DNA of 64,000 nt, from sequence record AP019559; one strand, written 5' to 3'. The notes under the pieces were generated by a model, which did not search any database, had not been told where the DNA came from, and was given only the letters and a program-made list of their open reading frames with translations. The translations under genes and the position numbers were made by a program. Of the stretch, positions 1,835 through 63,948 are shown in pieces (position 1 is the stretch's first letter; every line of letters starts with the position of its first letter). Source of the stretch: Escherichia phage SP15.

Positions 1835-1940
1835 TGATTTTCCTCTTTCTCACTATTTCAGGAATATTATAGCAAATCTGATAGCGATTAGCAAGTAAAA
1901 TTTCAAAGAAAAAGGAGACCCGAAGATCTCCTTGTTTTTA

Positions 1941-4636: not shown

Positions 4637-5389
4637 TTACACCTTCCCCATGTCTTTAAAGATGTCATAGAATGCTTTAGACTCAACAGAACGAACGTTA
4701 TCCATCAATTCGATCATTGAGAATGGGGCATTTTCGTATTTCTCATAGACTTCCATAAGGAGTGCTAGACCTGAGTCACCTTTAATGTCTTTCTGAGCTA
4801 TATCTCCGCAGATAATTAAACGGCAGTCTTGTCCTACACGAGTTAGGAGACAAATCATTGCCTCAACGGAAATATTCTGAGCTTCATCGACAATTACATA
4901 GGAGTTGTTGAAAGTTCTGCCACGAGCATGTTCGATAGCCAAAAATTTAATTTTCTGACGTTCGACATATCCCTTATAGGCATGTTCGCCGATGGCCCAT
5001 TTCATACCATCAGCTATTGGCTCCAACCAAGGCTCTAGCTTTTCTGCTAGATCACCAGGAAGCATACCAAGAGACTTACCTAGAGGTTCATTAGGACGTA
5101 CGAGGATCACTTGCTCAATATCTGAGTGAATGTCTACGAGTTCCTGAGCTGCAAGAACGGACGGAATAAAGGTTTTACCAGTACCTGGCTCACCGATACC
5201 CACAGTCACTGTGTTGTTCTTGATCATATTGATATATGATTTTTGCTCGCGGTTTTTACCTACTAGGGATTTAGCAACTGGGTTAGCGTAATCATTAGAA
5301 AAATCAGCCTGAATTACGTTATTCTCATACTTGTTGCCACGCTTTCTTGAACCATTGCGGTTCTCTCTTTTTTGACGTGCTTTTCCCAT
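4637..5389 (-). CDS. phoH: PhoH-like ATPase
   Basis: Walker A GEPGTGKTF, Walker B IVDEAQN; start placed at ATG preceded by AGGAG. Confidence 0.85.
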   Translation of the reverse strand: MGKARQKRENRNGSRKRGNKYENNVIQADFSNDYANPVAKSLVGKNREQKSYINMIKNNTVTVGIGEPGTGKTFIPSVLAAQELVDIHSDIEQVILVRPNEPLGKSLGMLPGDLAEKLEPWLEPIADGMKWAIGEHAYKGYVERQKIKFLAIEHARGRTFNNSYVIVDEAQNISVEAMICLLTRVGQDCRLIICGDIAQKDIKGDSGLALLMEVYEKYENAPFSMIELMDNVRSVESKAFYDIFKDMGKV

Positions 5390-11097: not shown

Positions 11098-11550
11098 ATG
11101 TCGCTCACACAACAAGAACTTTTAGATAATTTCCGATATGAAGATGGAAAATTATTTAGAACCACAGGAAGAAATGCAGGCAAGGAATGTTGTGTTTCAA
11201 CGGGAAATGGGTATTATCGTATTTCTCTAGGTAGTAAAACTATGCTCCGACACAGAGCCATCTTCTTAATGCATCATGGTTATCTCCCTGATTTAGTAGA
11301 TCATGAGAATACTATAAAAGGTGATGATCGTATTGAAAATCTTAGAGAGCAGACAGTATCCGGTAATCTAAGAAATATCAAATATAAGAAAGGAATGCAT
11401 GTTTACCCTTCTGGTAGTAAGAACTGGCAAGTAGTATTTACTATTAACCGTAAACGTATAGTTAAAGGAACATATGACAACTATGAGGTTGCATGTTCTA
11501 TGGCCAAGATGTTTAGAGGTCAATTATACGGTAGGGAATCAATCCAGTAA
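11098..11550 (+). CDS. HNH homing endonuclease (HNH_3 type)
   Basis: Motif LVDHENTIKGDDRIENLRE; start at ATG preceded by GGAGG; free-standing in an intergenic position. Confidence 0.7.
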   Translation: MSLTQQELLDNFRYEDGKLFRTTGRNAGKECCVSTGNGYYRISLGSKTMLRHRAIFLMHHGYLPDLVDHENTIKGDDRIENLREQTVSGNLRNIKYKKGMHVYPSGSKNWQVVFTINRKRIVKGTYDNYEVACSMAKMFRGQLYGRESIQ

Positions 11551-17676: not shown

Positions 17677-18648
17677 ATGACTAATGTAAAAGAATTTATT
17701 AAACGCTGTCAAGAAGCATATTATCGGGGTATGTCTTTAATCTCTGATGAGGAGTATGATTGCCTGGTAAAACGCTTCCCGTTAGAAGAAGAGATCGGGC
17801 CTAAGGGTGATATTCCACATCTGTACCGTATGTATTCTTTACAGAAAGTTTATTATAATCGTGGGGATAAACCACCATTTAATCCTTTAGGTCAGGTAGA
17901 AACTGATAAGTTAGATGGTTGTGCAATTTCTCTGCTATATATTAACGGCGAATTTGTTCAAGCACTAACTCGTGGTAATGGTATTCTAGGGAATGATGTC
18001 ACAAGCAACGTAAGACTGCTGAATATCCCTAAAAAGATTTCCCAAAAAGTACCAACTCAAATCACTGGTGAAGTTCTAATTACAAAAGAAGTAGAAAATA
18101 AACGTAACTTTGCCTCTGGTGCTATTAACCTCAAAGATAGTGATGATTTCGTACAACGTATCGGGGAAGGTGGTTTAATCTTCGTTGCATACGGTATCCA
18201 GTGTTCTGCCGAATCTGTAGGTATTACAGAAGCATACTTAAAAGATATGCTTTGGCTAGAGAATGAGAACTTCTTAACAGTTGTTAATGTGCGTTCCTTC
18301 TTTAAATGGATTCCGACGGACGGTAAAGTTGTTCGTATTAATGACAACAACAAATTCTTCCGAGAAGGCTGGACTAATAAATTCCCTCGCGGGGCGTTCG
18401 CTATTAAAGAGGATGAAGAAGGCGAGATTACAACTCTTACTAAAGTTGAATGGCAGGTAGGGGCTTCTGGTAAAGTAACTCCAGTTGGTTATTTCGAACC
18501 GGTAATTATTGATGATGCTACAATTGTTAAAGCGACTCTTAATAACGTTGATTATATTAACTCTCTCGATCTAGAGATCGGTTGCCAGATTCGAGTGATT
18601 CGTGCTGGTGGTGTAATCCCGTGCATAGTAGAGCGAGTATACGATTAA
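17677..18648 (+). CDS. ligA: NAD-dependent DNA ligase, N-terminal part (adenylation and OB domains)
   Basis: KLDGCAISLLYINGEFVQALTRGNGILGNDVT matches LigA KxDG and TRGDG motifs; ends before the zinc-finger/HhH/BRCT part. Confidence 0.75.
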   Translation: MTNVKEFIKRCQEAYYRGMSLISDEEYDCLVKRFPLEEEIGPKGDIPHLYRMYSLQKVYYNRGDKPPFNPLGQVETDKLDGCAISLLYINGEFVQALTRGNGILGNDVTSNVRLLNIPKKISQKVPTQITGEVLITKEVENKRNFASGAINLKDSDDFVQRIGEGGLIFVAYGIQCSAESVGITEAYLKDMLWLENENFLTVVNVRSFFKWIPTDGKVVRINDNNKFFREGWTNKFPRGAFAIKEDEEGEITTLTKVEWQVGASGKVTPVGYFEPVIIDDATIVKATLNNVDYINSLDLEIGCQIRVIRAGGVIPCIVERVYD

Positions 18649-18850: not shown

Positions 18851-19630
18851 ATGAAAATCGAAATTCCAACACAATGTCCCTCTTGTGGTTCTAAGCTCGA
18901 TCTTGTCAACGGACAATTATTCTGTCGTAATAAGTCCAACTGTCCAGCACAATCAAGTAAGTTAATTGAGAACTTCTGTACAAAAATGAAGTTAAAGGGT
19001 TTTGGCCCAAAAACTATTGAGAAGCTGGAGCTGACGAAGATTTCAGAACTATTTTACCTAACCGAAGAAGATTTGGTTAGAGCCGTGGGTAGCAAGGTTG
19101 CCGCTAAGTTAATTAGCGAATTAAATACTAAAGTTCGCGGAGACATTGACTTTGGTTCAGTTCTCGGTTCTTTAGGAATCCCTCTAATTGGAGAGGTTGC
19201 AGCAAAGAAATTATCCCAAAATTGCACTAGCTTCCACGATGTGAAGGCTGACGGCAAGGCTGGAGAAAACTATAAAGCCTGGCTAAATTCCACACAAGGC
19301 AAGGATGTTATCGAATTACCGTGGAAATTCACAACTGGTATTAAAGGTGCTAAAGCCGAGGTCATCATTACTGATGGTCTAGTAGCCCAACCAAATGGAA
19401 TAACGGTATGTATTACCGGATCTTTGCAAGATTTTGCAAATAGAACGGATGCAACAAACTATCTAGAAGGTCTAGGGTATACTGTTAAAAAATCAGTTAC
19501 CAAAGACGTTAAATACCTAATCTGTGAGGATGAATCTAAGCGTTCTTCCTCATCTTATAAGAAAGCCGAAACGAATGGGATAGAAATCCTGTCGATTAAA
19601 GAACTATTGGAGAAAAATAATAATGTCTAA
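18851..19630 (+). CDS. ligA: NAD-dependent DNA ligase, C-terminal part (zinc finger, HhH, BRCT-like)
   Basis: N-terminal Cys cluster CPSCGS...CRNKSNCP, then GFGPKTIEKLEL helix-hairpin-helix. Confidence 0.7.
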   Translation: MKIEIPTQCPSCGSKLDLVNGQLFCRNKSNCPAQSSKLIENFCTKMKLKGFGPKTIEKLELTKISELFYLTEEDLVRAVGSKVAAKLISELNTKVRGDIDFGSVLGSLGIPLIGEVAAKKLSQNCTSFHDVKADGKAGENYKAWLNSTQGKDVIELPWKFTTGIKGAKAEVIITDGLVAQPNGITVCITGSLQDFANRTDATNYLEGLGYTVKKSVTKDVKYLICEDESKRSSSSYKKAETNGIEILSIKELLEKNNNV

Positions 19631-20472: not shown

Positions 20473-21945
20473 ATGACCTTGTTTAACGTGCAAGCTGTAG
20501 TGTTGAAGATGCTTCTAGCTTCCGAACAGAAGCAAATAGCATTGGAAACATTCTCAAAACTGCATAAAGATCATTTTAATGACGCTTTCTCCTCAATTTA
20601 CCAAGCCGTCCAGAATTATTATAAAAAATATAACACAATGCCGTCCATTGACGCACTGATGCTTGAGGCTAATAGGAACGCCCGCCTTTCTCAAGCTCTA
20701 GTCGTTTTAGCTAACACTCAAATTCCAGAAGTTAGCATGGAACAGGCACTTGAAGTCCTAGAAGCCGAGTATACACAGGATTTATTCCTGAAGCTTCTAG
20801 AAACAGACGTGCTTCAAGATTTAACAATGCTGGATCAGGGAGAAATTCTTAACCGAGTTGCCTCCCTTCACTTAAAATTAGAAGAGAAAGTAACGAATAC
20901 TGGAAAAGTATTCAACGCAGATAACATGCGTATTTTCCAGAGAGAAGAAGATACCAAACTGAACTTAATCGCTCTTGGTATCTGTAATGAGTTCGACGCT
21001 CAAATTGGTTTAGCTCGCACAGAAACGTTACTGCTTGGTGGTTGGCGTGGTACTGGTAAATCCATTATCTGTTCAAACATACAGGTTCAGCAATATTTGA
21101 ATGGGGATATTGCTCCATACTTCTCAATTGAGATGAAAGAACATGAAGTATTTAGACGTAATCTAGCCATGTTAGCTGGTGTATCCGCACTAGCAATGCG
21201 TAATAATACTCTAGAAGGCGCAGCTCTGTTGAGATTAGCCAGAACTAGAGCTAGGATGTTTAATGGTGGTGAAGAGCTTTTCGATAACTTCGTTAAACAG
21301 TACACAATGGCTAAGATGAGTGATTTCTACGATATGGAAAGTAAGCTAATAGAAGGGTATGAACTACATACTCCTATGATTATTGTTTATGATCCTGAGC
21401 TGTCTATTACAACAGTTGACGTAGAATTAAATAAATTAGTTGCTAGATATGGGGATAAAGTTACAGTAGCTTTACTGGACTATATTAACCAAACCCGACT
21501 TCCAGATTCTAAAACCATTGATATGTATGACTGGAAAGAACAGATGGTTGTTAGCTCGTCTTTCAAATCTATCTGCCAGAAACATAACGTGGCTGGCGTA
21601 GCTCCTTACCAGATCGATCAAGATGGTAGAACACGTATGTCAAAAGGGATTCTTGATTCCGCAGACATGGCTGCTAATCTTAATGCTGCAAAAGCTGATA
21701 ATGGTCAAGGTGCTATTATGTTTGACTTCGTTAAGACTCGTTCTTCTGATAGCGTGAAGTTTATGCCTAAAATGAACTGGGAAACCCTGCGGATGGATAA
21801 TACTACCAACCTAGCAATGGAAGATATATCTCAAATGGAAGCTGAGTTCGTTATCCCTATTGAGAAGGATAAGCCGGCTCAATCTAAACGTGCTAAGAAA
21901 GACAAAGCTGAAAATTCAACAGGTGAACAGGCCAGCGATATATGA
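20473..21945 (+). CDS. DnaB-like replicative DNA helicase
   Basis: Walker A GGWRGTGKSIICSN; start uncertain (ORF open from 20422). Confidence 0.7.
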   Translation: MTLFNVQAVVLKMLLASEQKQIALETFSKLHKDHFNDAFSSIYQAVQNYYKKYNTMPSIDALMLEANRNARLSQALVVLANTQIPEVSMEQALEVLEAEYTQDLFLKLLETDVLQDLTMLDQGEILNRVASLHLKLEEKVTNTGKVFNADNMRIFQREEDTKLNLIALGICNEFDAQIGLARTETLLLGGWRGTGKSIICSNIQVQQYLNGDIAPYFSIEMKEHEVFRRNLAMLAGVSALAMRNNTLEGAALLRLARTRARMFNGGEELFDNFVKQYTMAKMSDFYDMESKLIEGYELHTPMIIVYDPELSITTVDVELNKLVARYGDKVTVALLDYINQTRLPDSKTIDMYDWKEQMVVSSSFKSICQKHNVAGVAPYQIDQDGRTRMSKGILDSADMAANLNAAKADNGQGAIMFDFVKTRSSDSVKFMPKMNWETLRMDNTTNLAMEDISQMEAEFVIPIEKDKPAQSKRAKKDKAENSTGEQASDI

Positions 21946-22475
21946 TAACACAGGAAAGGCTAAAAGAGTTATTTGATTACTCCCCAGAAACTGGGGAGTT
22001 TACTAGAAAAGTATCTAGAGGTAATCAGAAAGCTGGTAGTATAATAACCAGAAAAGACTCTAACGGTTATATAATTATTGGTATAGATGGCAAGGGTTAC
22101 AAAGCCCATCGGATGGCTTTTCTATTTATGGAAAATACATTGCCGGAAAAAGTAGACCATGTAAACAGAATACCTTTTGATAATAGGTGGTGTAATCTAA
22201 GAGACGCCACAGCTCAGGAAAATAGTAGAAATAAAACCGCATGTAGTAAGTCTGGATATTTGGGAGTTGCTTGGGATATCGAAAAACAAAGATGGAGAGT
22301 TCAAGTAAGAGACTCTAATAGCACTCTTAAAAATGGTGGCAGATTTAAGTATGAAGAGCTAGAGCTAGCTGTAAATTCAGCAAATATATTAAGGACTAAG
22401 TTACATGGAGAACGTGCTGTTATAGAAATTTTTGATACATCCAATTATCCTTCACTGGAGGAGTTAAATTCATGA
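21942..22475 (+). CDS. HNH homing endonuclease with AP2-like DNA-binding domain
   Basis: VDHVNRIPFDNRWCNLRDAT and SGYLGVAWD; ATGA overlaps with both flanking genes; paralog of 63412-63948. Confidence 0.75.
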   Translation: MITQERLKELFDYSPETGEFTRKVSRGNQKAGSIITRKDSNGYIIIGIDGKGYKAHRMAFLFMENTLPEKVDHVNRIPFDNRWCNLRDATAQENSRNKTACSKSGYLGVAWDIEKQRWRVQVRDSNSTLKNGGRFKYEELELAVNSANILRTKLHGERAVIEIFDTSNYPSLEELNS

Positions 22476-34126: not shown

Positions 34127-34148
34127 TCTACGTATCAAATAAATAATA

Positions 34149-34180
34149 AACCCCAGTGGATTTTGTCCACTGGGGTTTTC
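34149..34180. terminator. Bidirectional rho-independent terminator between convergent early and late gene blocks
   Basis: Hairpin CCCCAGTGGA-TTTTG-TCCACTGGGG flanked by A-run and T-run. Confidence 0.75.
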
Positions 34181-34185
34181 TTACA

Positions 34186-35934
34186 TTACTGCACTAGGTT
34201 TGCTCTTAATTGCTTGAGTTCTTCCTCTAAGTCTTCAACCCTTTTAATAAGATCCTGCACAACATGCATAGTATCAAGAAGCATTGGAGTTGTATCTAAT
34301 TCCTTTTGCTCCTGTTCTACTCCGTCATCATTATAGAATCTTCTAGTCTTTACATAGAGTGGCTCTATAGTCTCTACTTGCTGTGCAATAACCCCACGTC
34401 GGATACGAGATTTTTCATCGTTATTATATATAAAGGACTGGAATTCTAATCCTTTTAATACCTCGATGGACTTAGTTGCATCTATAGCTTTAATATCATG
34501 CTTTAAACGAGAATCAGATATAGCATTTAACTGCAGAGTATACGTTGCTGCGCCATTGGGCCACCAAGAATAGAAATAAATACTATTATTGTTCGGTTGA
34601 ATTTTTAAACGTACACCATATCTGTTATCCGCGTCTCCCGATACGTGCCAGCAAGAATCAGCAAAGGAACCTAAGTCATTATGAATTAATCCAAAATGTG
34701 CAGATGTTTTATACCCCGCATTAGAATACTGGGAACCACTCAAAATACTGTTAAAAGCGTAATTTGTTCCAATAGCCTGTTCTTCTGTACTAAATGTACC
34801 TTTAACAAGACCTGTTTCACTCCAAGCCATCATAGTCCCATAGCGGGCGCTATATCTATCAGAGTTTAATGTACCTGTGTCATCAAAGGCAAGGTCTTTT
34901 GTCACCCCTTTTGTCTTGTTGTATACAGACAGAATCGCATAATAAAGGCCATCCATGTACGCATCGCAACGAAGGCCAGCATCAGCTTCAACAACGGTGC
35001 CGATTTTGTATTGCGCCTTTACCTGCCCAGAGTATGCTCTTACTCCAGAACCTGGGCGAACAGCATCACCATTGATCACACTCCAAGAGGTATTCGCAGC
35101 AACAAATCCACCAGATGCACGAATCACCCAGACGCCGACAAAGTTTCGTGTAAGGATTTCGTCATTTGATGCCCCGTAGATCGGGCTTGAGCGTGACGCA
35201 TCAATCTCAAGGGTGTTGTAGCGCCCAGATATTGAAATTGCACCCGTCATTGGGATTGCATCACCTGCCGCAGCAGGGTATAGATCATTACTTGTTCTAA
35301 ATGCACCTTGATTGATATCGCTGAATACCTGAGCATATGACGAGCCAGAATAACTAGCAATACGCCCATAGATATTAGGCGCAGCGGATTCAAAAACACG
35401 CCCGTTAGCGTCGGACATACCACCATCTCCACGGCCATAAAGAGCACGTATTGATCCCTCCTGCACCCCATTCTTATCTGGAACACGAAAAGTTGTTGCT
35501 CCGTCACCATTAGAGTATTTGCCACGCTGGAATTTATCAGCTAACCATACCGAATCCTCTATAACACCAACCATTTGAGCGTACGCCCAAAGCTCCGGCC
35601 AGTCGGCTCTATTAAGAAGTTGTCCATCAGAAACCACTTCGTACGGTTGGATATACGCACGACTATCTCGAAGGTGGAAATCACCAACCCCGTAATTCAT
35701 AACGCCGTTCATAGTAGGACCGACTGTGCCAGTATTAATCTTATTCTCCACCCAACGTTTAGTTGCAGCGTCATAGTCTCTCACAGGATCCCCCGCAAGA
35801 GGGGTAGACCCAATAGGACGTACATTTAGCCATGCTGCTGCACGGTCCGCAAGATCGGATAAGTTATTACTTTTATCCATCTTTTCATCTTTAAGTTTTG
35901 TAATGTCCCGAGGGATATTAGTATAAGTAGTCAT
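34186..35934 (-). CDS. Distal L-shaped tail fibre protein (LtfB-like) with C-terminal intramolecular chaperone (peptidase S74-like)
   Basis: N-terminal tail-fibre attachment motif; C-terminal SDSRLKHDI...GLEFQSFIYNND autoproteolytic chaperone signature and coiled-coil tail. Confidence 0.75.
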   Translation of the reverse strand: MTTYTNIPRDITKLKDEKMDKSNNLSDLADRAAAWLNVRPIGSTPLAGDPVRDYDAATKRWVENKINTGTVGPTMNGVMNYGVGDFHLRDSRAYIQPYEVVSDGQLLNRADWPELWAYAQMVGVIEDSVWLADKFQRGKYSNGDGATTFRVPDKNGVQEGSIRALYGRGDGGMSDANGRVFESAAPNIYGRIASYSGSSYAQVFSDINQGAFRTSNDLYPAAAGDAIPMTGAISISGRYNTLEIDASRSSPIYGASNDEILTRNFVGVWVIRASGGFVAANTSWSVINGDAVRPGSGVRAYSGQVKAQYKIGTVVEADAGLRCDAYMDGLYYAILSVYNKTKGVTKDLAFDDTGTLNSDRYSARYGTMMAWSETGLVKGTFSTEEQAIGTNYAFNSILSGSQYSNAGYKTSAHFGLIHNDLGSFADSCWHVSGDADNRYGVRLKIQPNNNSIYFYSWWPNGAATYTLQLNAISDSRLKHDIKAIDATKSIEVLKGLEFQSFIYNNDEKSRIRRGVIAQQVETIEPLYVKTRRFYNDDGVEQEQKELDTTPMLLDTMHVVQDLIKRVEDLEEELKQLRANLVQ

Positions 35935-35944
35935 TAATCACCTC

Positions 35945-36211
35945 TTATGCCCAGTTACGTACACGGGGATTCTTAATAATAAATTGTTCAAGATTTGATA
36001 AGTCCACATCGTCCCCTATTATTCTTATGTTTATATAATACCCCTCTTTGCCAATGACAACTGGAGTCTTACTTTTAGGGTCATCTACTAGGAGGACAAA
36101 ACCAATTTCATCTACAAACACTTTACCATAGTTTGTCTTAAGCCACTCACTATCAATGACAACATCCCGATAATGTTTTTCGTCTTTAAATTGCAAATTA
36201 ATATCTTTCAT
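35945..36211 (-). CDS. Hypothetical small protein between tail-fibre genes
   Basis: 88-aa ORF tightly packed between the two fibre ORFs. Confidence 0.4.
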   Translation of the reverse strand: MKDINLQFKDEKHYRDVVIDSEWLKTNYGKVFVDEIGFVLLVDDPKSKTPVVIGKEGYYINIRIIGDDVDLSNLEQFIIKNPRVRNWA

Positions 36212-36212
36212 T

Positions 36213-38384
36213 TTAAACTTTCTCCCTCATTTGATTATCCGTTAATACTCGATTCCATATTCTAAGGTTACGAATATGACCGTACAATTTTGACGGATCA
36301 GTTGGTCTTCCACCTATTTCCACTAGCGAGTCCGAGTCCGTTCCTTTCCATGTAAAACCGTGTGAGGTCCCACCTTTATTCCCATTAACAAACGATGTGA
36401 CATCCCCATTACCACTAAAAATAAAACCAAATATATGTGGAGAAAATTTATTTTCAAACGAATAACCTCTAGACAACGTAGCTGATTCATCCTCATTTAG
36501 TACATACGTGTAAGGTGTCACGGAGATTATGTCAAATTCCGCAATAAATGCTTTTCCTCCTACATTGTATTGATTATTATCAATTATCATTGGGTATATA
36601 TTATTTAATTGAAAGCTATCCCAGTTAACGCTCACTTCAGCAAGGAATGAAATATTCGTCCCCGAGAAATTATTTCTTGCAGGTATAGTAACATAATCCA
36701 GAGTCCTTGTTGCAGGCGTGCTTCCCGTAATAATGAAGGAGGATGCACAAAAGCCCTTTTCAAATTGCGGAGTACAAAATGATATTGTATCCCCAACTTG
36801 CACAGGTTGATCATTATTTCGACAATAATTTACAGATCCAATAGAACTACCTCCACGTTCTACAAATTTACACATAGCTTCAACTTTCAACCATCCGTTG
36901 TCTTCTCTATATATTCTATGTGTTATAGTCCCTCTCCCTTCTACTACAGAAGAAACTTCGCCGGTTTCGCAATTTATGAAAGATCTAGCGCCGAGAATAA
37001 GACCTCCATCCTCACCTACTAAATAAAATTGTGGGGTGATATAGATATCCAAGTTTGCCTTTACTCGTATAGATAAAGAAACGTATTCATTTTGCTGACA
37101 GTTGATTGCATTTACTGTTTCACAATAAAATAATGAAGGATACTCACCTTGTGAATTTTCGTTTGCTGTTGCGGTTGCATATGCAAAACCATACTTATCA
37201 ATATTATAAGTAACATCACTACGGTATTTATCTGTATTTAATGAAGCGGGGTCATTACTGAAAGTAATGTGATTTGTCCGCTGGCCTTCAATTAAGAGTC
37301 CTTGCTTTTCAAATCTAGGTTCATCGATATTAGCAATACAAAATTCACCATGCTTATTTATATATGTTGCGTTTGATGCACGCGAGAAACTAACAACCTT
37401 ATCAGAAGGCATTGTAATAACATCTTCACCAACTGTTATTTTCTTATAGCCTGGTGAATAACCTGCAAGCATATCAAGCGAGTCATTAAATGGAATCCAT
37501 ACGTCAGGGAATGGTTGAAGATCCGGAGCCCTGTTAGCTGCAACTTCCGCACGGTCTGCTTCTGTTTTTGCACGGTCTGCTTCTGCTTTAGAGCTGTTTG
37601 CACTACCAGCAGCATTGCTAGCTTGTTGCCCGGCCTCAATAGCACTATTACCAGCTTGTGTAGCAGAAGCAGCAGCTTGGTTTTTTAAAGCTGTTGTATC
37701 AGATACCGCGCTATCCTTAATACCTTGTGTATCCGTTTTTAATTGCTCAACATCTGCTTTTAAAGTTGTTATCTCGGATACCGAGCTATTTTTAATGGCC
37801 TGGGTATCAGATTTTAACTGTTCTACATCTGCTTTTAAAGCTGTTGTCTCTGTTACAGCACTATTTTTAATGGACTGGGTATCAGATTTTAACTGTTCGA
37901 CATCTGATTTAAGTCCTTGAATAGCAGCTACAGATTGGCTGGCAGAAGTTGCAGATCCCGCAGCATTAGTTTCACTAGCCTTAGCTTTTGTTTCCGAGGT
38001 TTTTGCATTGGTTTCAGAGATTTTTGCCGCAGATGCCGATGCAGCAGCTTGCCCAGAAAATATTTCCGCCTCATTCCTAAAACCGCTAGAATCAGCCGCT
38101 GATTGAGCTGCATTAGTCTCACTTGCCTTTGCGTTACCCTCGCTAAGTTTTGCATATTTCCGCCTCATTCCTAAAACCGCTAGAATCAGCCGCTGATTGA
38201 GCTGCATTAGTCTCACTTGCCTTTGCGTTACCCTCGCTAAGTTTTGCATCAGCCGCTGATTGAGCTGCATTAGTCTCACTTGCCTTTGCGTTACCCTCGC
38301 TAAGTTTTGCAGCAGTAGCTGATGCGTCAGCGTTAGTTTCACTAGTCTTTGCATTAGTTTCACTAGCCTTTGCGTTAGTTTCAC
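36213..38384 (-). CDS. ltf: Proximal L-shaped tail fibre protein, C-terminal fragment; real coding begins near 38154, upstream part of this ORF is out of frame
   Basis: Ala/Ser/Thr-rich coiled repeats (LKSDVEQLKSDTQ) then globular C-terminal domain. Confidence 0.6.
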   Translation of the reverse strand: MKLTQRLVKLMQRLVKLTLTHQLLLQNLARVTQRQVRLMQLNQRLMQNLARVTQRQVRLMQLNQRLILAVLGMRRKYAKLSEGNAKASETNAAQSAADSSGFRNEAEIFSGQAAASASAAKISETNAKTSETKAKASETNAAGSATSASQSVAAIQGLKSDVEQLKSDTQSIKNSAVTETTALKADVEQLKSDTQAIKNSSVSEITTLKADVEQLKTDTQGIKDSAVSDTTALKNQAAASATQAGNSAIEAGQQASNAAGSANSSKAEADRAKTEADRAEVAANRAPDLQPFPDVWIPFNDSLDMLAGYSPGYKKITVGEDVITMPSDKVVSFSRASNATYINKHGEFCIANIDEPRFEKQGLLIEGQRTNHITFSNDPASLNTDKYRSDVTYNIDKYGFAYATATANENSQGEYPSLFYCETVNAINCQQNEYVSLSIRVKANLDIYITPQFYLVGEDGGLILGARSFINCETGEVSSVVEGRGTITHRIYREDNGWLKVEAMCKFVERGGSSIGSVNYCRNNDQPVQVGDTISFCTPQFEKGFCASSFIITGSTPATRTLDYVTIPARNNFSGTNISFLAEVSVNWDSFQLNNIYPMIIDNNQYNVGGKAFIAEFDIISVTPYTYVLNEDESATLSRGYSFENKFSPHIFGFIFSGNGDVTSFVNGNKGGTSHGFTWKGTDSDSLVEIGGRPTDPSKLYGHIRNLRIWNRVLTDNQMREKV
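38061..38248. repeat. Perfect 94-bp tandem duplication (2 x 94 nt) inside the tail-fibre gene
   Basis: 38061-38154 and 38155-38248 are identical; 94 is not a multiple of 3. Confidence 0.85.
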
Positions 38385-38754
38385 TAGTTTTTGCGTTAGT
38401 CTCAGATATTTTTGCAGCCGCCGCTGATTCTGCAGATCTATCCGCGGATGCAGCAGATTGAGTAGCAGATGTAGCGGATTGAGTAGCAGAAGTTTCAGAA
38501 GCTCCAGCAGAAATAGCAGCTTCCTGTTCAGAGTTCTTAGCGTTAAGTTCCGAAGTCTTAGCAGCTATCTCAGAATCTTTTGCAGCTGCAGCAGACTTAG
38601 CTGCTGCCTCAATAGAAGATACTAACTCACTTGCAGTAATAGAACTAATAGAGTTACCAAGAGTTACTGTATATCTAGGAAATTTACTCGCAGTAGCCTT
38701 AGTATCATCAATATTTAATATCTGTTGTACAATAATTTTAGTAGTTACTGCCAT
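38143..38754 (-). CDS. ltf: Proximal L-shaped tail fibre protein, N-terminal fragment terminated by frameshift
   Basis: N-terminus [17 protein letters not shown] typical of T5 pb1-like fibre; ends in EICKT stop inside a 94-bp tandem duplication. Confidence 0.6.
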   Translation of the reverse strand: MAVTTKIIVQQILNIDDTKATASKFPRYTVTLGNSISSITASELVSSIEAAAKSAAAAKDSEIAAKTSELNAKNSEQEAAISAGASETSATQSATSATQSAASADRSAESAAAAKISETNAKTSETNAKASETNAKTSETNADASATAAKLSEGNAKASETNAAQSAADAKLSEGNAKASETNAAQSAADSSGFRNEAEICKT

Positions 38755-39176
38755 TATTTAGTTACCCCATCACTGATAAATACTTTACCCTCCATTATAC
38801 GAAAGGAGCTAATTGCAGATCCTATAACATCTCTAGTCATAATTATATCATAGTATCCTGCGAATCGCTGACGAGGATTATACTTATCTCTATCTTTAGA
38901 TGCTTTAGCTCCTATATTTTCCACGGATTCTACGGGTAAACTTATAGCTACAGCTCCTTGAGCAGCATCAATAATATTAGTAGTAAAGGATGCTAATATC
39001 TCCGCATTCTCATCTAGGCTACTTTTTATAGTGCCCCTTAAAGAATACCCAGTTAAGTTAACGGGGGTATTTGTAGGTGGATAAGCACTATCATCAACGT
39101 CTAAGAACTGCATCATTAGACCATATGGTACATTTTCGTCTATTACTAAATCTATAACTCTATTTTCAGTACTCAT
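38754..39176 (-). CDS. Tail collar protein (T5 p132-like)
   Basis: 140 aa, position between fibre gene and pb4-like gene as in T5. Confidence 0.5.
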
Positions 39177-39179
39177 TAT

Positions 39180-41252
39180 TTACCTTATATGAATGTACCC
39201 GTTTTGCAGGTCTATCTTCATTCTATAATAGGCTTCCGGATTATCAGATAATGCAGCGTTTCTATCATAAATAACGTTAACACCGATCTGAGATAAGAAG
39301 GCATTATTTGCTACAATCTTACTGGCGGTTACCGTACCGTTAACTATCATATCGCCATGCAGTACCATTGCAGGGTTAATCCAACCGGAACCATTCCATT
39401 GACGAGTAAATGCAGATTGCGGAGCATTACTATTAAACTCAGTCAATACATCATATCTAACTGGTGGACTACCAAAGTTATTCTGGAAGAAGGCATTAGC
39501 TTGTCCATCATCCCAGCCTCCAAGACCTGGAATACCTAAGGAGTACATGCCAGGCCCCCTTTGACCATCTGCACCAATAGTACCTTCAGTACCGCTCCAC
39601 TGAACTACATCAGACCAGCTAGTACCTTCAAGAAGTTTGTTAGTAACTGGATCAAGTGTACCCGTAGTCGCATAAATATTTTGAGTCATATCTGTGCGGT
39701 TAGGTGGGGTTTTAGACCAACCAGGAGGTGGGTAATCTTGTTCTAGTGGTTTAGCAGGTAGAGATGTTGCTAACTTATAAACAAATACTGTTTGCTTACC
39801 TTGCATACCAGTACCTAGATCTACATCGCCATTAGGAGTTCCAATAACTACTCCACTAGAAATACGTAGCACATCACCATCATAACGAATCCACTGTGTG
39901 GCATTACCAATGTCTAATTTAGCTTTGGCAGAGGTATTATCCATACCCATCCAAATACCAGAGTTATTATCTCCCCAAGATTTACCTTGAGTGTAAATTG
40001 CTGGGTTATCCTTACCAGATAAGTTAGTCATGATAAAGTTCGCAGCATTAATATCTCTAGTAATTACTTTACCATCAACGTTAACAACACGGTTTATAGG
40101 GTCGAAAGAAATAGGTGCTTTTCCTTCTTCATCTAGCAGACCAATGTTAATAGCACCAGTAGCTGCGTCGATTAAGAATGTCTGTCTCCAGATTTCTCCA
40201 TCTTTCATGCTGCCCTTAATAAAGGCATAATTAACATCAATACCCGTCTCATTGACAAAGCTGTTGTCTAGAGGAGTATCTTCATTCAATATAAATGTTA
40301 CAGGAGCTGATTCTGTTATATCTTGCTTATTTGGTCCCCAGGCAATTGATGATACCTTAAAAGTATGCTCAACTTTCCATGGGAATGATATAATTGTTGC
40401 AGCTCTAGCAGCCCCAACGTTTATCTTTTGAGCTTTAGCCCAACCAGTCTTAGCGTATTCTTCAGAGTTTATATAAGTAACCAGAAATTCACGGACATTA
40501 GCACCAGCACCACGTTCCCAGTCCCATTCTATTCTAACATCATATCGTTCCTTACCGTCTGCGATTCGTGCAGCTTTAAAGGCAATGTTAGTAGGTGCAG
40601 TAGGTGGTACGAAATTATAAGCTACAGTGAAAACGCTAGGATATTCATAATAACCAGATGAGTCAACTGTAACACCATCTGGCATCGTAACTTGACCAGA
40701 TATTCTGATCTTATAGTCACCAACAGGAACACCACCAAATTTGATAGTAGGTCCCAGTGCGCCTATATAATATTTAACCCATTCACTATCTTCTGATGCA
40801 GTACTTTTTAATTCAATAGTGCAGTAATTAGCTTCACCAGCAGTCTCTACAACAACTATTGGAGCACCAACACCAACGTCAACGGGTTCTGATTCAGATC
40901 TTGCTGCAGTAATTATTGGCTTTTCCTTTGTTCTAAAGTTAGTTTCATTAGAGAGGTTGATACCAATCTTAGCTTCCAGTAACTCTGAGTCAATAATTGA
41001 GTCATAGAAAGCCCCCTGAATCTCATAGGAGGTAGAGGGGGTTAGATTATTAATCATTACGAAGAAAGTATCTATACCGGTGTAATCACGTCTATCTATA
41101 CTTTCTCCTATTTTTAACCAAAAAGATCTACCAATAACATCATAATCAGTATAAATGGAGTGCTGGACATAAGCCAAAGTATATCCAGTCATTATACTAT
41201 TTAAGACCATTTTGGCTGGTGCATTATTTGAAATCATTAAATGGATGCCCAC
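39180..41252 (-). CDS. Baseplate/tail tip protein pb4-like
   Basis: 690 aa, fibronectin-III-like repeats, synteny with pb3-like gene. Confidence 0.65.
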   Translation of the reverse strand: MGIHLMISNNAPAKMVLNSIMTGYTLAYVQHSIYTDYDVIGRSFWLKIGESIDRRDYTGIDTFFVMINNLTPSTSYEIQGAFYDSIIDSELLEAKIGINLSNETNFRTKEKPIITAARSESEPVDVGVGAPIVVVETAGEANYCTIELKSTASEDSEWVKYYIGALGPTIKFGGVPVGDYKIRISGQVTMPDGVTVDSSGYYEYPSVFTVAYNFVPPTAPTNIAFKAARIADGKERYDVRIEWDWERGAGANVREFLVTYINSEEYAKTGWAKAQKINVGAARAATIISFPWKVEHTFKVSSIAWGPNKQDITESAPVTFILNEDTPLDNSFVNETGIDVNYAFIKGSMKDGEIWRQTFLIDAATGAINIGLLDEEGKAPISFDPINRVVNVDGKVITRDINAANFIMTNLSGKDNPAIYTQGKSWGDNNSGIWMGMDNTSAKAKLDIGNATQWIRYDGDVLRISSGVVIGTPNGDVDLGTGMQGKQTVFVYKLATSLPAKPLEQDYPPPGWSKTPPNRTDMTQNIYATTGTLDPVTNKLLEGTSWSDVVQWSGTEGTIGADGQRGPGMYSLGIPGLGGWDDGQANAFFQNNFGSPPVRYDVLTEFNSNAPQSAFTRQWNGSGWINPAMVLHGDMIVNGTVTASKIVANNAFLSQIGVNVIYDRNAALSDNPEAYYRMKIDLQNGYIHIR

Positions 41253-55596: not shown

Positions 55597-56088
55597 TTAG
55601 CCTCCAACACCAGGGTTAACTGTCACAGTACACGCAGTAGAATCCTTACTTACTCGCTTACTATCTGTTACAGTTACTTTATAAGAGCCGGCATCCTCAG
55701 CTGCTGCTGCAGGCTTAGTATATGTAGCTCCTGAAGCTTCCGGAATAGGGGAACCATCTTTAGTCCATGCATAAGTGTATGGACCAGTACCACCAGTTGC
55801 AGTAACAGAAAGAGTTAACGTTGCTCCAGTATCAACTGACATGCTAGCAGTTAAATCTTTAGAAAGAGTTAACGGTGGGGCCGGTGGAGCAGGAGGAACT
55901 GCTTTAACATAAGCCTCTACAAATTTCTTCCATACTTTACGGTTAGTATGCGCAGATGAAAGCCCTAGTTCTCTACGCAGAAAAGCATAGCTAGGAACAT
56001 ATTTATGCGCAGCAACCGTAGCAAAGAAGATATGAGATTCTGGCAGTTTTTCACCAAAAATGGTCTTTAGACCATTATAATCAATCAT
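55597..56088 (-). CDS. Capsid decoration protein (pb10-like) with C-terminal Ig-like domain
   Basis: 163 aa; Pro-rich linker PPAPPAPP then TLTLSVTATGGTGPYTYAW Ig-like segment. Confidence 0.7.
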   Translation of the reverse strand: MIDYNGLKTIFGEKLPESHIFFATVAAHKYVPSYAFLRRELGLSSAHTNRKVWKKFVEAYVKAVPPAPPAPPLTLSKDLTASMSVDTGATLTLSVTATGGTGPYTYAWTKDGSPIPEASGATYTKPAAAAEDAGSYKVTVTDSKRVSKDSTACTVTVNPGVGG

Positions 56089-57302
56089 TCTTTATCTCCC
56101 TCGGTGGAACCTTGAGGTCTACCACCTTCTTGACCAGATACACCTGTTGCAGAACCAGCAACGTTAGCAGGAATACGAATCCTATCCATCTGCTCATCAT
56201 CTAAAGGTTCAAGGTTCAGCTCTAAACGAGCTTCGTTACCAGTCATAATACCATTATTAACCAATGAGGTTAAATGTTTAGCCTCAGCTTCTTTATCTGG
56301 TGTTAATGCAGCTACCTCCTTAGTATTAGGGGTAATCTTATAACCAAAAAAGAAAGTAAGAGAACTAGTCAGTTTGTTCAGCATAGGAATGATAGTCATA
56401 TAATAGAACAATTCGATGTTTGGTCGAATATTCGCATTATTACCACCATCAAGTAGTACTTGCGGAACTCCAAAGGCTAGACAAATAGATTTATTAAATC
56501 CTTCGATGTCTTCCTTAAAGTCTAGATCTTTAAAAGAGGATATTTGGGAGTACGGTTTAGCTTTCATACCACCATCTAGAATCAGGACAGAAGACTGACC
56601 CGTACTAGGATTATAATCGAGTTGTAATTCTTCTTGTTTACGCTCACGCAATTTCTTGTTCAGGATTTCATCCGTTTCAAGAATAAGACCAATCACGGTT
56701 CCGTTATCGAGGAATTTCTCTTTAAAATTAAGCATCTTGGAACGCTTCTCAAGAGAATCAATAACAGTAGCAACACGAGATTGTCCAGAAATTTGAGAAT
56801 TTGTGCCACACACGTAACTGTTATCCTTTATAAAGATAATCTCATCTACGCGATAGTCTATCTGATTATTAAATATAAATTTTTTGATAAACTTATTGGC
56901 ATCTGCCTCGACCTGCATAAGAGCAGCCGGGACATGGTAAAGCGATGTGCCATCCCAATAGATGTACGCACAACCTTCAAAAAGTAGGTCAGTGACTACA
57001 AGTCTACGGAATGTGCTTATATCCATGAATGGATTAGGTCGTACATTTAAGAGAGTGTCTAGAGTCTTTGTCTTAACGCCATTAGCGTACGTAACAATAT
57101 TATATTTATCTCCGACAGTATAAGAACACTCCGCCGCACTATCTATAACCATATTGGCAGTTCGATTGAGAATCTCAATCTTGCTATAGGCTTGTCCAGT
57201 GGTAAAAGGCTTACGGTTAGTGCGATGACTAACTGGTTCCATGTCTCTTATAATACGTTGACCCGGATTTAACTTTTCAGTAATCCAGCTTTTTAAACCC
57301 AT
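56085..57302 (-). CDS. Portal protein (pb7-like)
   Basis: 405 aa, position between terminase and head genes. Confidence 0.75.
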   Translation of the reverse strand: MGLKSWITEKLNPGQRIIRDMEPVSHRTNRKPFTTGQAYSKIEILNRTANMVIDSAAECSYTVGDKYNIVTYANGVKTKTLDTLLNVRPNPFMDISTFRRLVVTDLLFEGCAYIYWDGTSLYHVPAALMQVEADANKFIKKFIFNNQIDYRVDEIIFIKDNSYVCGTNSQISGQSRVATVIDSLEKRSKMLNFKEKFLDNGTVIGLILETDEILNKKLRERKQEELQLDYNPSTGQSSVLILDGGMKAKPYSQISSFKDLDFKEDIEGFNKSICLAFGVPQVLLDGGNNANIRPNIELFYYMTIIPMLNKLTSSLTFFFGYKITPNTKEVAALTPDKEAEAKHLTSLVNNGIMTGNEARLELNLEPLDDEQMDRIRIPANVAGSATGVSGQEGGRPQGSTEGDKE

Positions 57303-57739
57303 TATAAGAACCTTGCGAATCCTGATTTTGTTTCAGTCTTGACTTGTGTCTTTTCTTGAGGATTCTGTAATTTGTCTTTCTGCTTTTGAACCCATGCTTT
57401 CTGTTTATTAGCAGAAAATAATGGAGGTTCTTTCGTGTAAACCTTATGTAATAGTTGGTGATGGTGCTGGCACAATGTTACCACGTCCCTAACTAACTCA
57501 TGCTCATATTTCTTGTAGAATGCTTCCCTATTTGAAAGGACGATATTCTCATCAGTGAAATCCAGCTGGAGTTCTTTAGCAAATTTTTTTATTAGCTGAG
57601 ATATAGTATGATAATGGTGAAGTTCTAGGTCTTCACTACTACCACATATAGCACAGCAACCATCCTTACTATACCTAGATTTTATGCCATCCCTCATTAT
57701 GGAAATGGCATCACGTTTGTACTTAGTATTAGTGGCCAT
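57302..57739 (-). CDS. Small HNH endonuclease
   Basis: CAICGSSEDLELHHYH...CQHHHQLLH HNH/zinc motif; start uncertain. Confidence 0.6.
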   Translation of the reverse strand: MATNTKYKRDAISIMRDGIKSRYSKDGCCAICGSSEDLELHHYHTISQLIKKFAKELQLDFTDENIVLSNREAFYKKYEHELVRDVVTLCQHHHQLLHKVYTKEPPLFSANKQKAWVQKQKDKLQNPQEKTQVKTETKSGFARFL

Positions 57740-58403
57740 AATCCTCCAATCCAAAGCTACTTAGAAAGATTACTATATTCTCGGGAGCAACATTAAAAAA
57801 TTCCGTGCTTCCTGTAAAATTAGAAAACCCACAGTTTTTATTATAATATTCTCTGTGAACTTCCTTTTCTAAATCTAAAGCAGTCTCTCTATCTGGCAGA
57901 TGATACATGGTGAACAAGTATAGATCAGAAAATCCAGATTCTCTTTTAACTTCATTCAGCCGTTTCTCAGGGTATAAGCTTATGCCTACTTTAGTACCCC
58001 TAGAGGAGGACATGATATAGAGGAACCCGCCATTCTCCCATTTAAGAGAACAATAAGGGCATCTCTTACCTTGAGTCAATCCATCTAAGGTAATGAAACA
58101 GTCATGCCCATTATTGCAGCGTAGATGTAGTTTTGTTTTAGCATTAGTATAGCTGCTTAACAGAGTATACCCTATATTAGATATTCTGTTACTAACTTCA
58201 TCTAACGATATTGTATTATTGGAGCAGTGTGGACAACCTCTCCTCATATGGAGTATAGAATGTGGTGTTGCTTCCCAAACGTGTGCTCTCTGGCATTTAA
58301 ATACTGTTTTTGTACGTTGGTTTACATATTCACCGATAATTTGGATTCCACGATCAGCTAATCTAATATTTATATCTTTTATTGTTAGCTTTTGTCGACC
58401 CAT
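57729..58403 (-). CDS. T5orf172/GIY-YIG-like nuclease domain protein with two N-terminal zinc-ribbon modules
   Basis: Paired CxxxH...CPHC and C...CPYC modules then GFLYIM...KVGIS...R...E segment; start at ATG after GGAG. Confidence 0.5.
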   Translation of the reverse strand: MGRQKLTIKDINIRLADRGIQIIGEYVNQRTKTVFKCQRAHVWEATPHSILHMRRGCPHCSNNTISLDEVSNRISNIGYTLLSSYTNAKTKLHLRCNNGHDCFITLDGLTQGKRCPYCSLKWENGGFLYIMSSSRGTKVGISLYPEKRLNEVKRESGFSDLYLFTMYHLPDRETALDLEKEVHREYYNKNCGFSNFTGSTEFFNVAPENIVIFLSSFGLEDYGH

Positions 58404-58573
58404 AGAATCTCCTACACCCATGTAGAGCATTAATTTTTCTTGTTTACGTTCTATTATGGGAGAAGTTCTCCCGATCAATGAATATAGTATACATAATCGT
58501 ATCGAATTTGTAAAGGGGATTTTAAAATACAGGAATGGGATACCAACTGAGTAGTATCCCATCCTATACTTAT

Positions 58574-63422: not shown

Positions 63423-63948
63423 CTTAAGTATACAGGACATACAAGAAGCATTTGCTTATGATCCCGAAACCGGGGTTATTACCTGGAAAAGTGGTAGTCG
63501 TAAAGGTAAAGAAGCTGGTACTTTAAATAGAGGATATAGGCAGCTTAAGTACAAAGGGTTTAGAGCTTATGCACATCAAATAGCTTTTGTTATTATGGAA
63601 AATAGATGGCCCGAGGAATGCGTTGACCATATTGACAGGAATAAACTAAATAATAGATGGTCAAATCTGCGAGAAGCTACAATTACGGAAAATAATCATA
63701 ACGGTAGAACTTCAAAAACATCCTCGGGCTATCTAAATGTTACGTGGCATAAAGGACTCCAGAAATGGATGGTAAGATTACACGACAAACATGGACTTAT
63801 AAAGGGTACTACTGAGTATTTTTCCTACGATAGATTGGAAGATGCAGTAAATTATGCGAATTTACTAAGAAAGAAATTTCATGGCAGCTTTGCAGTACAA
63901 GAGGCATTCAAAGGGAACATACCAGATGTTGTTCAGTTAAACAGTTAA
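63412..63948 (+). CDS. HNH homing endonuclease with AP2-like domain
   Basis: VDHIDRNKLNNRWSNLREAT and SGYLNVTWH; paralog of 21942-22475. Confidence 0.75.
   Translation: MKNNLSIQDIQEAFAYDPETGVITWKSGSRKGKEAGTLNRGYRQLKYKGFRAYAHQIAFVIMENRWPEECVDHIDRNKLNNRWSNLREATITENNHNGRTSKTSSGYLNVTWHKGLQKWMVRLHDKHGLIKGTTEYFSYDRLEDAVNYANLLRKKFHGSFAVQEAFKGNIPDVVQLNS

Follow-up and report, generated by a model that had tools for sequence, protein, structure and literature searches.

A perfect 94-nt tandem duplication that splits the lateral tail-fibre gene ltfA in the Escherichia phage SP15 record, probably an assembly or finishing artefact

In the sequence record of Escherichia phage SP15 (AP019559), a tail-fibre gene is interrupted by two identical and directly adjacent stretches of DNA, and this raises the question of whether the phage has lost a fibre through mutation, whether the two resulting reading frames are joined during gene expression, or whether the duplication exists in the record but not in the DNA. 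We studied this locus in silico in a stretch of 64,000 nt of the record, hereafter referred to as the window, whose numbering is used throughout; its features are compiled in Table 1. The split gene is ltfA, the gene for the proximal L-shaped (lateral) tail fibre of a T5-like phage, as the first-pass annotation of this DNA had proposed. Its 203-aa ORF matches residues 1-206 of DT57C LtfA (PDB 8hqz chain d; E=3.4e-36) and the tail-fibre families PHROG 5481 and 24369 (E=7e-73 and 9e-50), while the remainder of the gene matches PHROG 1419 (E=9e-200) and Pfam PF13385. The surroundings agree with this assignment: a pb4-like gene is followed by ltfC, ltfA and then a fibre gene with an S74 domain. 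The stop codon of ltfC overlaps the start codon of ltfA, and the 140-aa LtfC protein is also encoded on one 1.4-kb Logan contig (95.9% identical to the window). An ORF of 690 aa with a GTG start sits upstream of ltfC; exact-protein look-ups with its product and with the 203-aa, 582-aa and 88-aa proteins gave no match. The 88-aa ORF between ltfA and ltfB is annotated at the same position in Lindwurm, WP85, phiAPCEc03 and I14, and the terminator-like hairpin behind ltfB probably marks the end of the fibre operon; internal promoters are no more numerous than in shuffled sequence.

Table 1. Coordinates of the features in and around the split ltfA gene (window numbering).
Feature	Position	Strand	Remarks
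ltfA 5' ORF, 203 aa, ending ...EICKT*	38143-38754	-	Collar anchor and start of the coiled-coil shaft
ltfA remainder, +1 frame	36213-38153	-	Shaft repeats and C-terminal ConA-like/Laminin_G_3 domain
X, 31 nt	38060-38090 and 38154-38184		Element of the plus-strand anatomy
R, 63 nt	38091-38153, 38185-38247 and 38248-38310		Element of the plus-strand anatomy
94-nt unit nearer the gene 3' end	38060-38153	-	X 38060-38090 and R 38091-38153; holds the premature TAG (38143-38145)
94-nt unit nearer the gene 5' end	38154-38247	-	X 38154-38184 and R 38185-38247
Third R unit, 63 nt (21 aa, AKLSEGNAKASETNAAQSAAD)	38248-38310	-	Identical; natural in-frame repeat partner
21-nt heptad repeat array (SETNAKx)	38330-38404	-	Coiled-coil shaft
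75-nt (25-aa) repeat array, 3 copies	37683-37910	-	phA11 and phC17 break here; 103-nt duplication of I14 lies here
ltfC, 140 aa	38754-39176	-	p132-type collar protein, fibre attachment; Pfam PF23926 LtfC, E=1e-14
pb4 homologue (straight-fibre gene)	39183-41237		
Conserved 88-aa ORF between ltfA and ltfB	35945-36211	-	PHROG 1361, E=3e-28
ltfB-type distal/branch fibre, 582 aa	34186-35934	-	C-terminal Peptidase_S74 intramolecular chaperone domain
Terminator-like hairpin after ltfB	34148-34178	-	13-bp stem and T-rich tail

Direct comparison of the two 94-nt units revealed that positions 38060-38153 and 38154-38247 are identical and that the identity carries on to position 38249; TRF likewise reports a repeat at 38060-38249 with a period of 94 nt, 2.0 copies, 100% matches and no indels. 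Since the period-94 identity extends over 96 consecutive positions, the phase in which the units had initially been annotated (38061-38154 and 38155-38248) is equally valid. On the plus strand, the segments are arranged in the order X(31) R(63) X(31) R(63) R(63), and all copies of X and of R are identical. Both TRF and our repeat scan recover the adjoining in-frame 63-nt repeat that had been noticed at first inspection, and the perfect period-63 tract spans 38185-38311. This R-R tract is exactly 127 nt long and 94 equals 127-33, an observation to which we give no weight. The novel R-to-X junction (38153/38154) reads ...CTAAGTTTTGC/ATATTTCCGCCTC..., or ...CGCTAAGTTTTGC/ATATTTCCGCCTC... with a longer left flank; it carries a microhomology of 2 nt (AT), and the junction 20-mer AAGTTTTGCATATTTCCGCC (38145-38164) occurs a single time in the window. 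With only about 3e-14 exact second copies of the 31-mer X expected by chance in 64 kb, the duplication is not a chance repeat. In a scan for perfect tandem repeats (periods of 20-400 nt; identical run of at least 0.8 times the period or 30 nt), the 94-nt repeat and the adjoining R-R repeat were the only ones present in the whole window.

As written, ltfA measures 2542 nt, which leaves a remainder of 1 on division by 3. Its N-terminal ORF (38754-38143 on the minus strand) therefore ends with the sequence EICKT and a stop codon, inside the second unit in gene orientation, and the rest of the gene continues in the +1 frame to position 36213. The ORF that is mechanically called for this part (36213-38384, minus strand, 723 aa) extends 5'-ward into out-of-frame sequence and overlaps the 203-aa ORF by 242 nt. 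This layout is as first described, and a recount of the coordinates did not yield a single continuous ORF. Deletion of either unit reduces the gene to 2448 nt with a single terminal stop codon and restores an ORF of 815 aa (about 85 kDa, estimated from its length), a size within the range of about 700-1100 aa expected for LtfA. Hence, the perfect 94-nt duplication alone creates the split, as the first-pass annotation had stated. We also considered independent translation of the 3' part and rejected it: the sole nearby in-frame ATG (window 38168) is directly abutted by AGGA, and a 3' product would be devoid of the N-terminal collar anchor and so could not rescue the fibre.

One might ask whether programmed ribosomal frameshifting or transcriptional slippage fuses the two ORFs into one fibre protein, as had been suggested for this locus. 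The 242-nt overlap of the ORFs would offer room for such an event, and the +1 frame is open from gene nt 191 onward. However, the shift needed is +1, the overlap zone is free of X XXY YYZ heptamers, the stop-codon context (AAA ACT TAG C) fits no known +1 motif, and the only homopolymers are two A5 runs located far upstream. Moreover, the two-ORF layout is not conserved, as the relatives that we surveyed possess one continuous ORF. With an intact gene in all 20 complete loci described below and no slippery site, we rejected this explanation, which we regard as highly improbable.

The intact layout of ltfA is evident from related phages in the databases. When the fibre region and 12 kb of replication genes were compared by megablast with 50,697 phage records, the best identities were only 92-97%, so that the window itself is not among these records. 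Intact ltfA genes are found in phiAPCEc03 (815 aa), NBEco002 (815 aa), FFH_1 (816 aa) and, once the ends of its record are joined and trimmed, PH204 (816 aa); each of them contains one exact X at gene nt 571, the position of the first X in the window, and AKFV33 (784 aa) contains a single exact X at nt 478. The comparison with related fibre genes that had been recommended at the outset thus shows X to be single in five relatives. The relatives carry two R-like units with 5-8 mismatches between them over the 63 positions. All natural repeat periods (21, 42, 57, 63, 75 and 108 nt) are multiples of three, and all length differences among the intact relatives are in frame. In each of the 20 complete T5-like loci from IMG/VR that we surveyed, ltfA is one uninterrupted ORF. 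The junction 20-mer gave no match in IMG/VR and none in genome contigs; two matches in JGI metagenomes lie in unrelated glycine-rich genes, and we dismissed them as chance. A literature search yielded no report of a Tequintavirus fibre gene with a duplication or a truncation.

Several database records of T5-like phages exhibit irregularities in the same gene. Both the start and the end of the PH204 record fall within ltfA, with an exact end/start overlap of 111 nt, and the record stops precisely at the R'/R boundary (...GCTGAT/GCAAAAC), the boundary at which the junction of the window is found. phA11 and phC17 possess untrimmed exact end overlaps of 66 nt and 114 nt, respectively, in the 75-nt array of ltfA. 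To judge from alignment coordinates, one end each of phC11 and S.Ent 1-35-3 lies about 17-33 nt past the match to ltfA, within the gene or next to it, and one IMG/VR contig begins within ltfA. Comparable assemblies therefore do end in the ltfA arrays. Two re-oriented records carry internal duplications instead. In WP85, a perfect duplication of 127 nt (two copies, with a run of exactly 127) splits ltfA, and removal of one copy yields 820 aa; the period equals the largest k of SPAdes. In I14, a perfect two-copy duplication of 103 nt (75+28 nt) is out of frame, and removal of 28 nt yields 815 aa. Given the duplications in WP85 and I14 and the untrimmed end overlaps in PH204, phA11 and phC17, the repeat arrays of ltfA are, as judged from these sequences, a systematic assembly trap for T5-like phages. 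The two exact adjacent copies in the window, 94 nt (63+31) each, are longer than the shortest and shorter than the longest of these overlaps and duplications (66-127 nt). Beyond the period, the identity continues for 2 nt in the window and for 0 nt in both WP85 and I14, as expected for arbitrary joins. The Phage Annotation Guide cautions that contigs may be longer than the genome itself (more than 100% of its length) and recommends a check for duplicated regions (PMC8785237).

The contig ends and duplications in the ltfA arrays of these other records make an assembly or finishing artefact, in the form of an untrimmed contig-end overlap, the most likely reading of the 94-nt duplication; we assign it a probability of about 0.58. 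The first-pass annotation had placed an assembly error last, behind an inactivating mutation; both are possible, and the records of other T5-like phages now move the assembly error to the front. T5-like genomes are terminally redundant, and short reads from them would assemble as a circle. The raw contig would be opened wherever the assembly graph is ambiguous, in T5-like phages often in the repeat arrays of ltfA, and would carry the same k-mer-sized stretch at both ends. Cutting and re-joining it to the conventional T5 orientation with the overlap left untrimmed would then produce an internal perfect tandem duplication. The true gene would be an intact ltfA of 2448 nt and 815 aa with the layout Z-R-R-X-Y, and normal branched lateral fibres would be made. 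From the frame break, the intact relatives and the like overlaps and duplications in other T5-like records, all of which are established, we infer that the window's own record probably passed through such a join.

Further properties of the window are in keeping with an untrimmed join. ltfA is the sole split gene that we found in the 64 kb, and the slur09 CDSs with an ortholog in the window all align full-length in one frame. General sequence noise (e.g., long-read indels) was rejected as a cause, as all other genes shared with slur09 are in a single frame; a sole split gene without such noise agrees with one faulty join. T5 (AY692264) and AKFV33 are collinear with the window and have the same orientation, which suggests a re-oriented contig. 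When phased as 38061-38154, the unit ends on the last base common to the R-to-R and R-to-downstream paths (the next base being T vs. G), and graph-based or greedy extension would presumably stop at 38154 if the copy number varies in the stock. Several points speak against an artefact. The value of 94 is not a default k of SPAdes, though a k of 95 would give it as k-1, and overlaps of even length are seen in phA11 and phC17 (66 and 114 nt). The AT microhomology is also expected from a real slip and would arise in about 1 in 16 arbitrary joins. Since the X-containing 94-mer is unique in the predicted true sequence, a contig end at this place would need copy-number heterogeneity or an idiosyncrasy of the assembler. 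Finally, real fibre-loss mutants are common in stocks of T5-like phages (PMC4728585).

This last point leads to the alternative that the duplication is real and recent, which we consider possible but less probable than an artefact. A 94-nt replication slip on the AT microhomology would have doubled R and X and cut LtfA after 203 aa; the frame break and the early stop codon are present in the sequence, the remainder of the window is clean, and the three identical copies of R would point to a very recent rearrangement in the array. The structure of the fibre base accommodates such a stub. In DT57C, residues 1-40 of LtfA serve as its anchor in the LtfC ring, and from T40 onward the protein continues as a helix that takes part in a three-helix coiled coil (PMC10713586); attachment of LtfB via LtfA has been deduced from genetics (PMC4728585), with indirect cryo-EM support only (PMC10713586). 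The stub, whose alignment to the LtfA N-terminus is given above, would retain the strands of the N-terminus that thread into the LtfC collar, together with about 160 aa of coiled coil; missing would be the remaining shaft, the receptor-binding lectin-like domain and, presumably, the site at which LtfB docks, and the truncation would thus leave the virion without functional lateral fibres. Such a phage would still infect rough hosts via its central fibre and receptor-binding protein, while O-antigen-dependent adsorption would be lost; the allele would be neutral or favoured on K-12-type strains and would revert readily by recombination between the 94-nt copies. Precedents for a phenotype of this kind exist: spontaneous loss of LTF-dependent infection was seen in about 30% of the DT571/2 plaques grown on C600, an ltfA amber mutant (S23) retains the ability to plate on rough strains, and the ltf locus of DT530 was rearranged by repeat recombination after laboratory passage (PMC4728585).

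Against a genuine mutation stands, first of all, the nature of the slip. With homologies of 21, 63 and 75 nt close by, slippage would be expected to occur in register, and an out-of-register event on 2 nt should be rare. The junction coincides with an R/R unit boundary, which has a chance of about 5-8% for a random breakpoint, and the PH204 contig ends there as well. In WP85, the period of the like lesion is exactly 127, an assembler k value. None of the 20 complete IMG/VR loci has a broken ltfA, and the junction was recovered neither from IMG/VR nor from genome contigs, the two metagenome matches being to unrelated genes.

The three duplications could also be taken together. If the ltfA arrays were a hot spot or contingency locus, recurrent and reversible out-of-frame duplications, forming and collapsing at high frequency, would turn the lateral fibres on and off within a phage population, and the OFF state would have been captured three times, in the window (94 nt), in I14 (103 nt) and in WP85 (127 nt). 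Three independent records with out-of-frame perfect duplications in the same gene region would be in line with this idea, the assembly breaks in the arrays could reflect heterogeneity of the stocks, and the spontaneous loss of LTFs in DT571/2, reported as 'unexpectedly high', is unexplained (PMC4728585). T5-like populations would then be mixtures of fibre-plus and fibre-less virions, and the loss of LTF function in about 30% of the DT571/2 plaques on rough hosts could be accounted for. However, every natural unit is a multiple of three, the reverse of what known contingency repeats show, and ordinary slippage would thus preserve the frame; the units of 21, 63 and 75 nt also speak against the phase variation that the first-pass annotation had considered. 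The microhomologies of 0, 0 and 2 nt and the one period of exactly 127 nt do not favour a hot spot either, records that were not rotated show the same lengths as plain end overlaps, and 20 of 20 complete loci surveyed are in the ON state. We therefore view a switching locus as improbable.

For users of the record, the practical consequence is that the lateral fibre would be annotated as broken or pseudogenised, and that the phage would be mis-scored as fibre-less in surveys of host range or receptor-binding proteins. The main value of our analysis thus lies in curation, and at least two further public T5-like genomes, WP85 and I14, appear to contain an error of the same class. If real, the duplication is an ordinary fibre-loss mutation of the kind that arises readily on rough laboratory hosts, and it would represent routine loss of an accessory fibre during laboratory propagation, with easy reversion.

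When the lesion in the window is compared with known systems, it resembles the k-mer end overlaps of SPAdes-type assemblies in being a perfect two-copy tandem of about 100 nt without divergence, situated where related assemblies end; it is unlike them in that 94 is not a default k and the junction shares 2 nt. In laboratory lambda (PaPa), the stf gene is reportedly split into two ORFs in comparison with Ur-lambda (Hendrix & Duda 1992). As in the window, the gene for an accessory side fibre of a siphovirus is split by a frameshift; in lambda the split is tolerated, since laboratory hosts can be infected without the fibre. However, the lambda lesion is a single-base change that has been verified biologically, whereas the 94-nt duplication was read from sequence and may not exist in the DNA. 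The T5 reference itself provides a precedent for an LTF-module gene that is split by a sequence error and not by biology: its ltfC homologue (gp135/136) has a published sequence-error frameshift (PMC10713586, Table 1 footnote), although this concerns another gene and presumably a point error rather than a duplication. The branched lateral fibres of DT57C and DT571/2 share with the window the order pb4-like gene, ltfC, ltfA and ltfB and a homologous LtfA N-terminus, whereas LtfA of the window is of the AKFV33/phiAPCEc03 type, with a ConA-like C-terminal domain, and the extra 88-aa ORF precedes ltfB. If the duplication were real, the phage would be expected to behave like the ltfA amber mutant and the spontaneous LTF-less phages, which infect rough strains only (PMC4728585); its lesion would be a duplication, in contrast to the point mutations or ltfA-ltfB recombination of the DT57C/DT571/2 type.

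The window is part of the genome of a T5-like phage (Tequintavirus); in a search of 50,697 phage records, its replication genes displayed 95-97% identity to those of slur09, T5 and many others. Its lateral-fibre module lies on the minus strand, starting near 41.2 kb and running to about 34.1 kb (see the table). The 5' ORF of the split gene corresponds to the N-terminus of LtfA, the proximal lateral tail-fibre protein, and aligns to residues 1-206 of the DT57C LtfA structure (PDB 8hqz_d, E=3.4e-36). Residues 1-40 of DT57C LtfA thread into the dodecameric ring of the collar protein LtfC, and the chain forms a three-helix coiled coil from T40 onward (PMC10713586). In this fibre type, an 88-aa ORF is constantly positioned between ltfA and the distal fibre gene ltfB. 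Since LtfA of the window lacks an S74 chaperone domain, this ORF may serve as its assembly chaperone.

Lateral-fibre module of the window and ltfA lesions or record ends in other T5-like phages
Feature or record	Position	Strand	Details
pb4-like straight-fibre gene	first in module as ordered from ~41.2 kb	-	
ltfC, collar protein	38754-39176	-	Pfam LtfC
ltfA, split gene	between ltfC and 88-aa ORF	-	
Conserved 88-aa ORF	35945-36211	-	PHROG 1361, unknown function
LtfB-type fibre	34186-35934	-	Peptidase_S74 chaperone domain
Terminator-like hairpin	34148-34178	-	
PH204 (OR492254.1), un-rotated	record ends		exact untrimmed end/start overlap of 111 nt; 816 aa when trimmed
phA11 (OQ680478.1), un-rotated	record ends		exact untrimmed end/start overlap of 66 nt; ends in 75-nt array
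phC17 (OQ680481.1), un-rotated	record ends		exact untrimmed end/start overlap of 114 nt; ends in 75-nt array
Salmonella phage WP85 (PV844355.1), re-oriented	4772-5025 of locus		perfect 127 nt x2, run exactly 127; splits ltfA
Escherichia phage vB_EcoS_I14 (PP892525.1), re-oriented	locus 1813-4288, gene nt 755-960		perfect 103 nt x2

The first-pass annotation had described a perfect 94-nt tandem duplication that shifts the ltfA reading frame, and our analysis bears out both points. Positions 38060-38153 are exactly identical to 38154-38247, with period-94 identity extending over 96 positions. Because division of 94 by three leaves a remainder of one, the fibre frame halts after 203 codons (...EICKT-stop) at a TAG codon (38143-38145), and ltfA carries on in the +1 frame to 36213. 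On the plus strand, the region reads X(31)-R(63)-X(31)-R(63)-R(63), where R is a 63-nt repeat unit and X a 31-nt segment, all copies of each being identical. Deletion of one 94-nt unit yields a gene of 2448 nt that encodes 815 aa free of internal stops. The duplication lies within the coiled-coil part of the LtfA shaft, a region composed of nested repeats that all keep the frame, with periods of 21 nt (one heptad, SETNAKx), 63 nt and, farther downstream in the gene, 75 nt. The two adjoining R units at 38185-38311 are 100% identical and form a perfect period-63 tract of exactly 127 nt; in the four relatives having both R-like units (NBEco002, FFH_1, phiAPCEc03, and PH204), the counterparts differ at 5-8 of 63 positions. 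This identity could stem from recent gene conversion or duplication, or from a longer array collapsed at k=127.

The closest fibre alleles are those of phiAPCEc03, NBEco002, FFH_1, AKFV33, and PH204. Comparison with related fibre genes, as proposed in the first-pass annotation, revealed a single, sequence-identical copy of X in all five, located in four of them at gene nucleotide 571, the position of the window's first X. These alleles are uninterrupted (784 aa in AKFV33, 815-816 aa in the others), and the ltf/ltfA ORF is intact (698-1116 aa) in 20 of 20 complete T5-like loci from IMG/VR, where every perfect tandem repeat has a period divisible by three. The split is thus derived and private to the window sequence, and a conserved design with two ORFs is thereby ruled out. 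Programmed slippage was not borne out either: the ORF overlap zone contains no slippery heptamer or +1 motif and, the two-ORF layout being private to the window, we consider programmed recoding extremely improbable.

For the C-terminal ~490-760 residues of LtfA, homologues with 33-44% identity occur in dozens of non-T5-like IMG/VR contigs (most of ~5 to 60 kb), and in megablast searches the ltfA 3' end, the 88-aa ORF and ltfB also matched the ~60-kb phages BRET, SA126VB, and phiG7. This distribution points to exchange of the receptor-binding part as a module. In SelmaRatti, where the features under the match are listed by product name only, one carries the annotation "lateral tail fibre assembly protein" and may be the 88-aa ORF.

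Whether the duplication is real or artefactual was examined through the behaviour of other T5-like assemblies at ltfA, and these follow a consistent pattern. PH204, phA11, and phC17 are "complete genome" records with both ends in ltfA, which is left unannotated or given only as a misc_feature; the PH204 record ends exactly at the R'/R boundary (...GCTGAT/GCAAAAC), the unit boundary of the window's junction. By alignment coordinates alone, phC11 and S.Ent 1-35-3 have an apparent end inside or beside ltfA, and one IMG/VR contig begins within it. The WP85 duplication is found in the ltfA repeat region corresponding to that of the window, and removal of one copy restores an 820-aa ORF; its ltfA CDS was truncated by the annotators, with a gap of 229 nt to ltfC. 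A value of 127 is the largest k of the phage assembler in widest use, and the circular contigs that this program produces share k identical bases between their two ends; the WP85 duplication has the appearance of such an overlap, left untrimmed at k=127. Over-extended contigs are the subject of a warning in the Phage Annotation Guide (PMC8785237). The I14 duplication comprises the 75-nt natural unit plus 28 nt; ltfA is split there into three annotated CDSs, and removal of the 28 nt restores 815 aa. The I14 record carries Felixounavirus taxonomy although its locus is T5-like.

The window fits this series of records. Its 94 nt (63+31) fall within the 66-127 nt range of the other overlaps and duplications; in the phasing 38061-38154, the final base of the unit is the last one that the R-to-R and R-to-flank paths share; no gene of the 64-kb window other than ltfA is broken; and the orientation is that of the T5 convention, which suggests that the contig was cut and re-joined. 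The arguments for a real, fixed fibre-null mutation carry some weight, and it would have precedents: among DT571/2 plaques from E. coli C600, about 30% had spontaneously lost fibre-dependent infection, an ltfA amber mutant retained plating on rough strains, and the DT530 ltf locus was rearranged over laboratory passage (Golomidova et al., PMC4728585). The 2 nt (AT) common to the junction are what a microhomology-mediated slip would leave (~1 in 16 under a blind join), but such a slip must hit the R-unit boundary by chance (roughly 5-8%) and must use 2-nt homology although repeats of 21-75 nt lie nearby. Since we judge these coincidences to cancel roughly, the balance is decided by the sister records, in which the same class of lesion recurs as a demonstrable assembly product. 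We therefore favour an assembly artefact (probability about 0.58) and regard a real, fixed mutation as possible but doubtful.

Elsewhere in the window, DNA ligase is encoded by two ORFs (17677-18645 and 18851-19627, plus strand) that differ in frame and are separated by about 205 nt; because slur09 is annotated with the identical split (ligA_2 and ligA_1), this arrangement is conserved and not an error of the window sequence. Between the gene for the terminase large subunit and the next gene, where slur09 has only ~115 nt, lies an ORF of 277 aa with many Cys pairs (57729-58562, minus strand), which may have been inserted as a mobile element or one of homing-endonuclease type. Three paralogous plus-strand ORFs of ~150-177 aa (21942-22472, 63424-63945, and 11104-11544) share 30-44% mutual identity, as measured via their slur09 homologues. 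Their scattered positions, together with a further slur09 copy (56028-56504) that has no syntenic counterpart in the window, suggest a mobile gene family.

Were the duplication real, all that the virion retained of LtfA would be a coiled-coil stub of 203 aa anchored in the collar. Attachment of LtfB via LtfA has been inferred for DT57C, mainly from genetics (PMC10713586, PMC4728585); by analogy, the phage would then lack functional lateral fibres, and it would presumably still infect rough hosts. The two 94-nt copies would be expected to recombine to wild type at appreciable frequency; that a real duplication forms part of a recurrent reversible switch seems to us improbable. Biologically, the duplication is of low interest; its practical value lies in alerting curators that the ltfA repeat arrays systematically mislead the assembly of T5-like genomes. 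A frame-breaking perfect duplication of the same kind is present in at least two further public records, those of WP85 and I14. If the duplication is an assembly artefact, as we favour, LtfA would be a normal protein of 815 aa that belongs to the AKFV33/phiAPCEc03 type and whose C-terminal domain is ConA-like, and the phage would have it together with the accessory ORF of 88 aa and a branch formed by LtfB.
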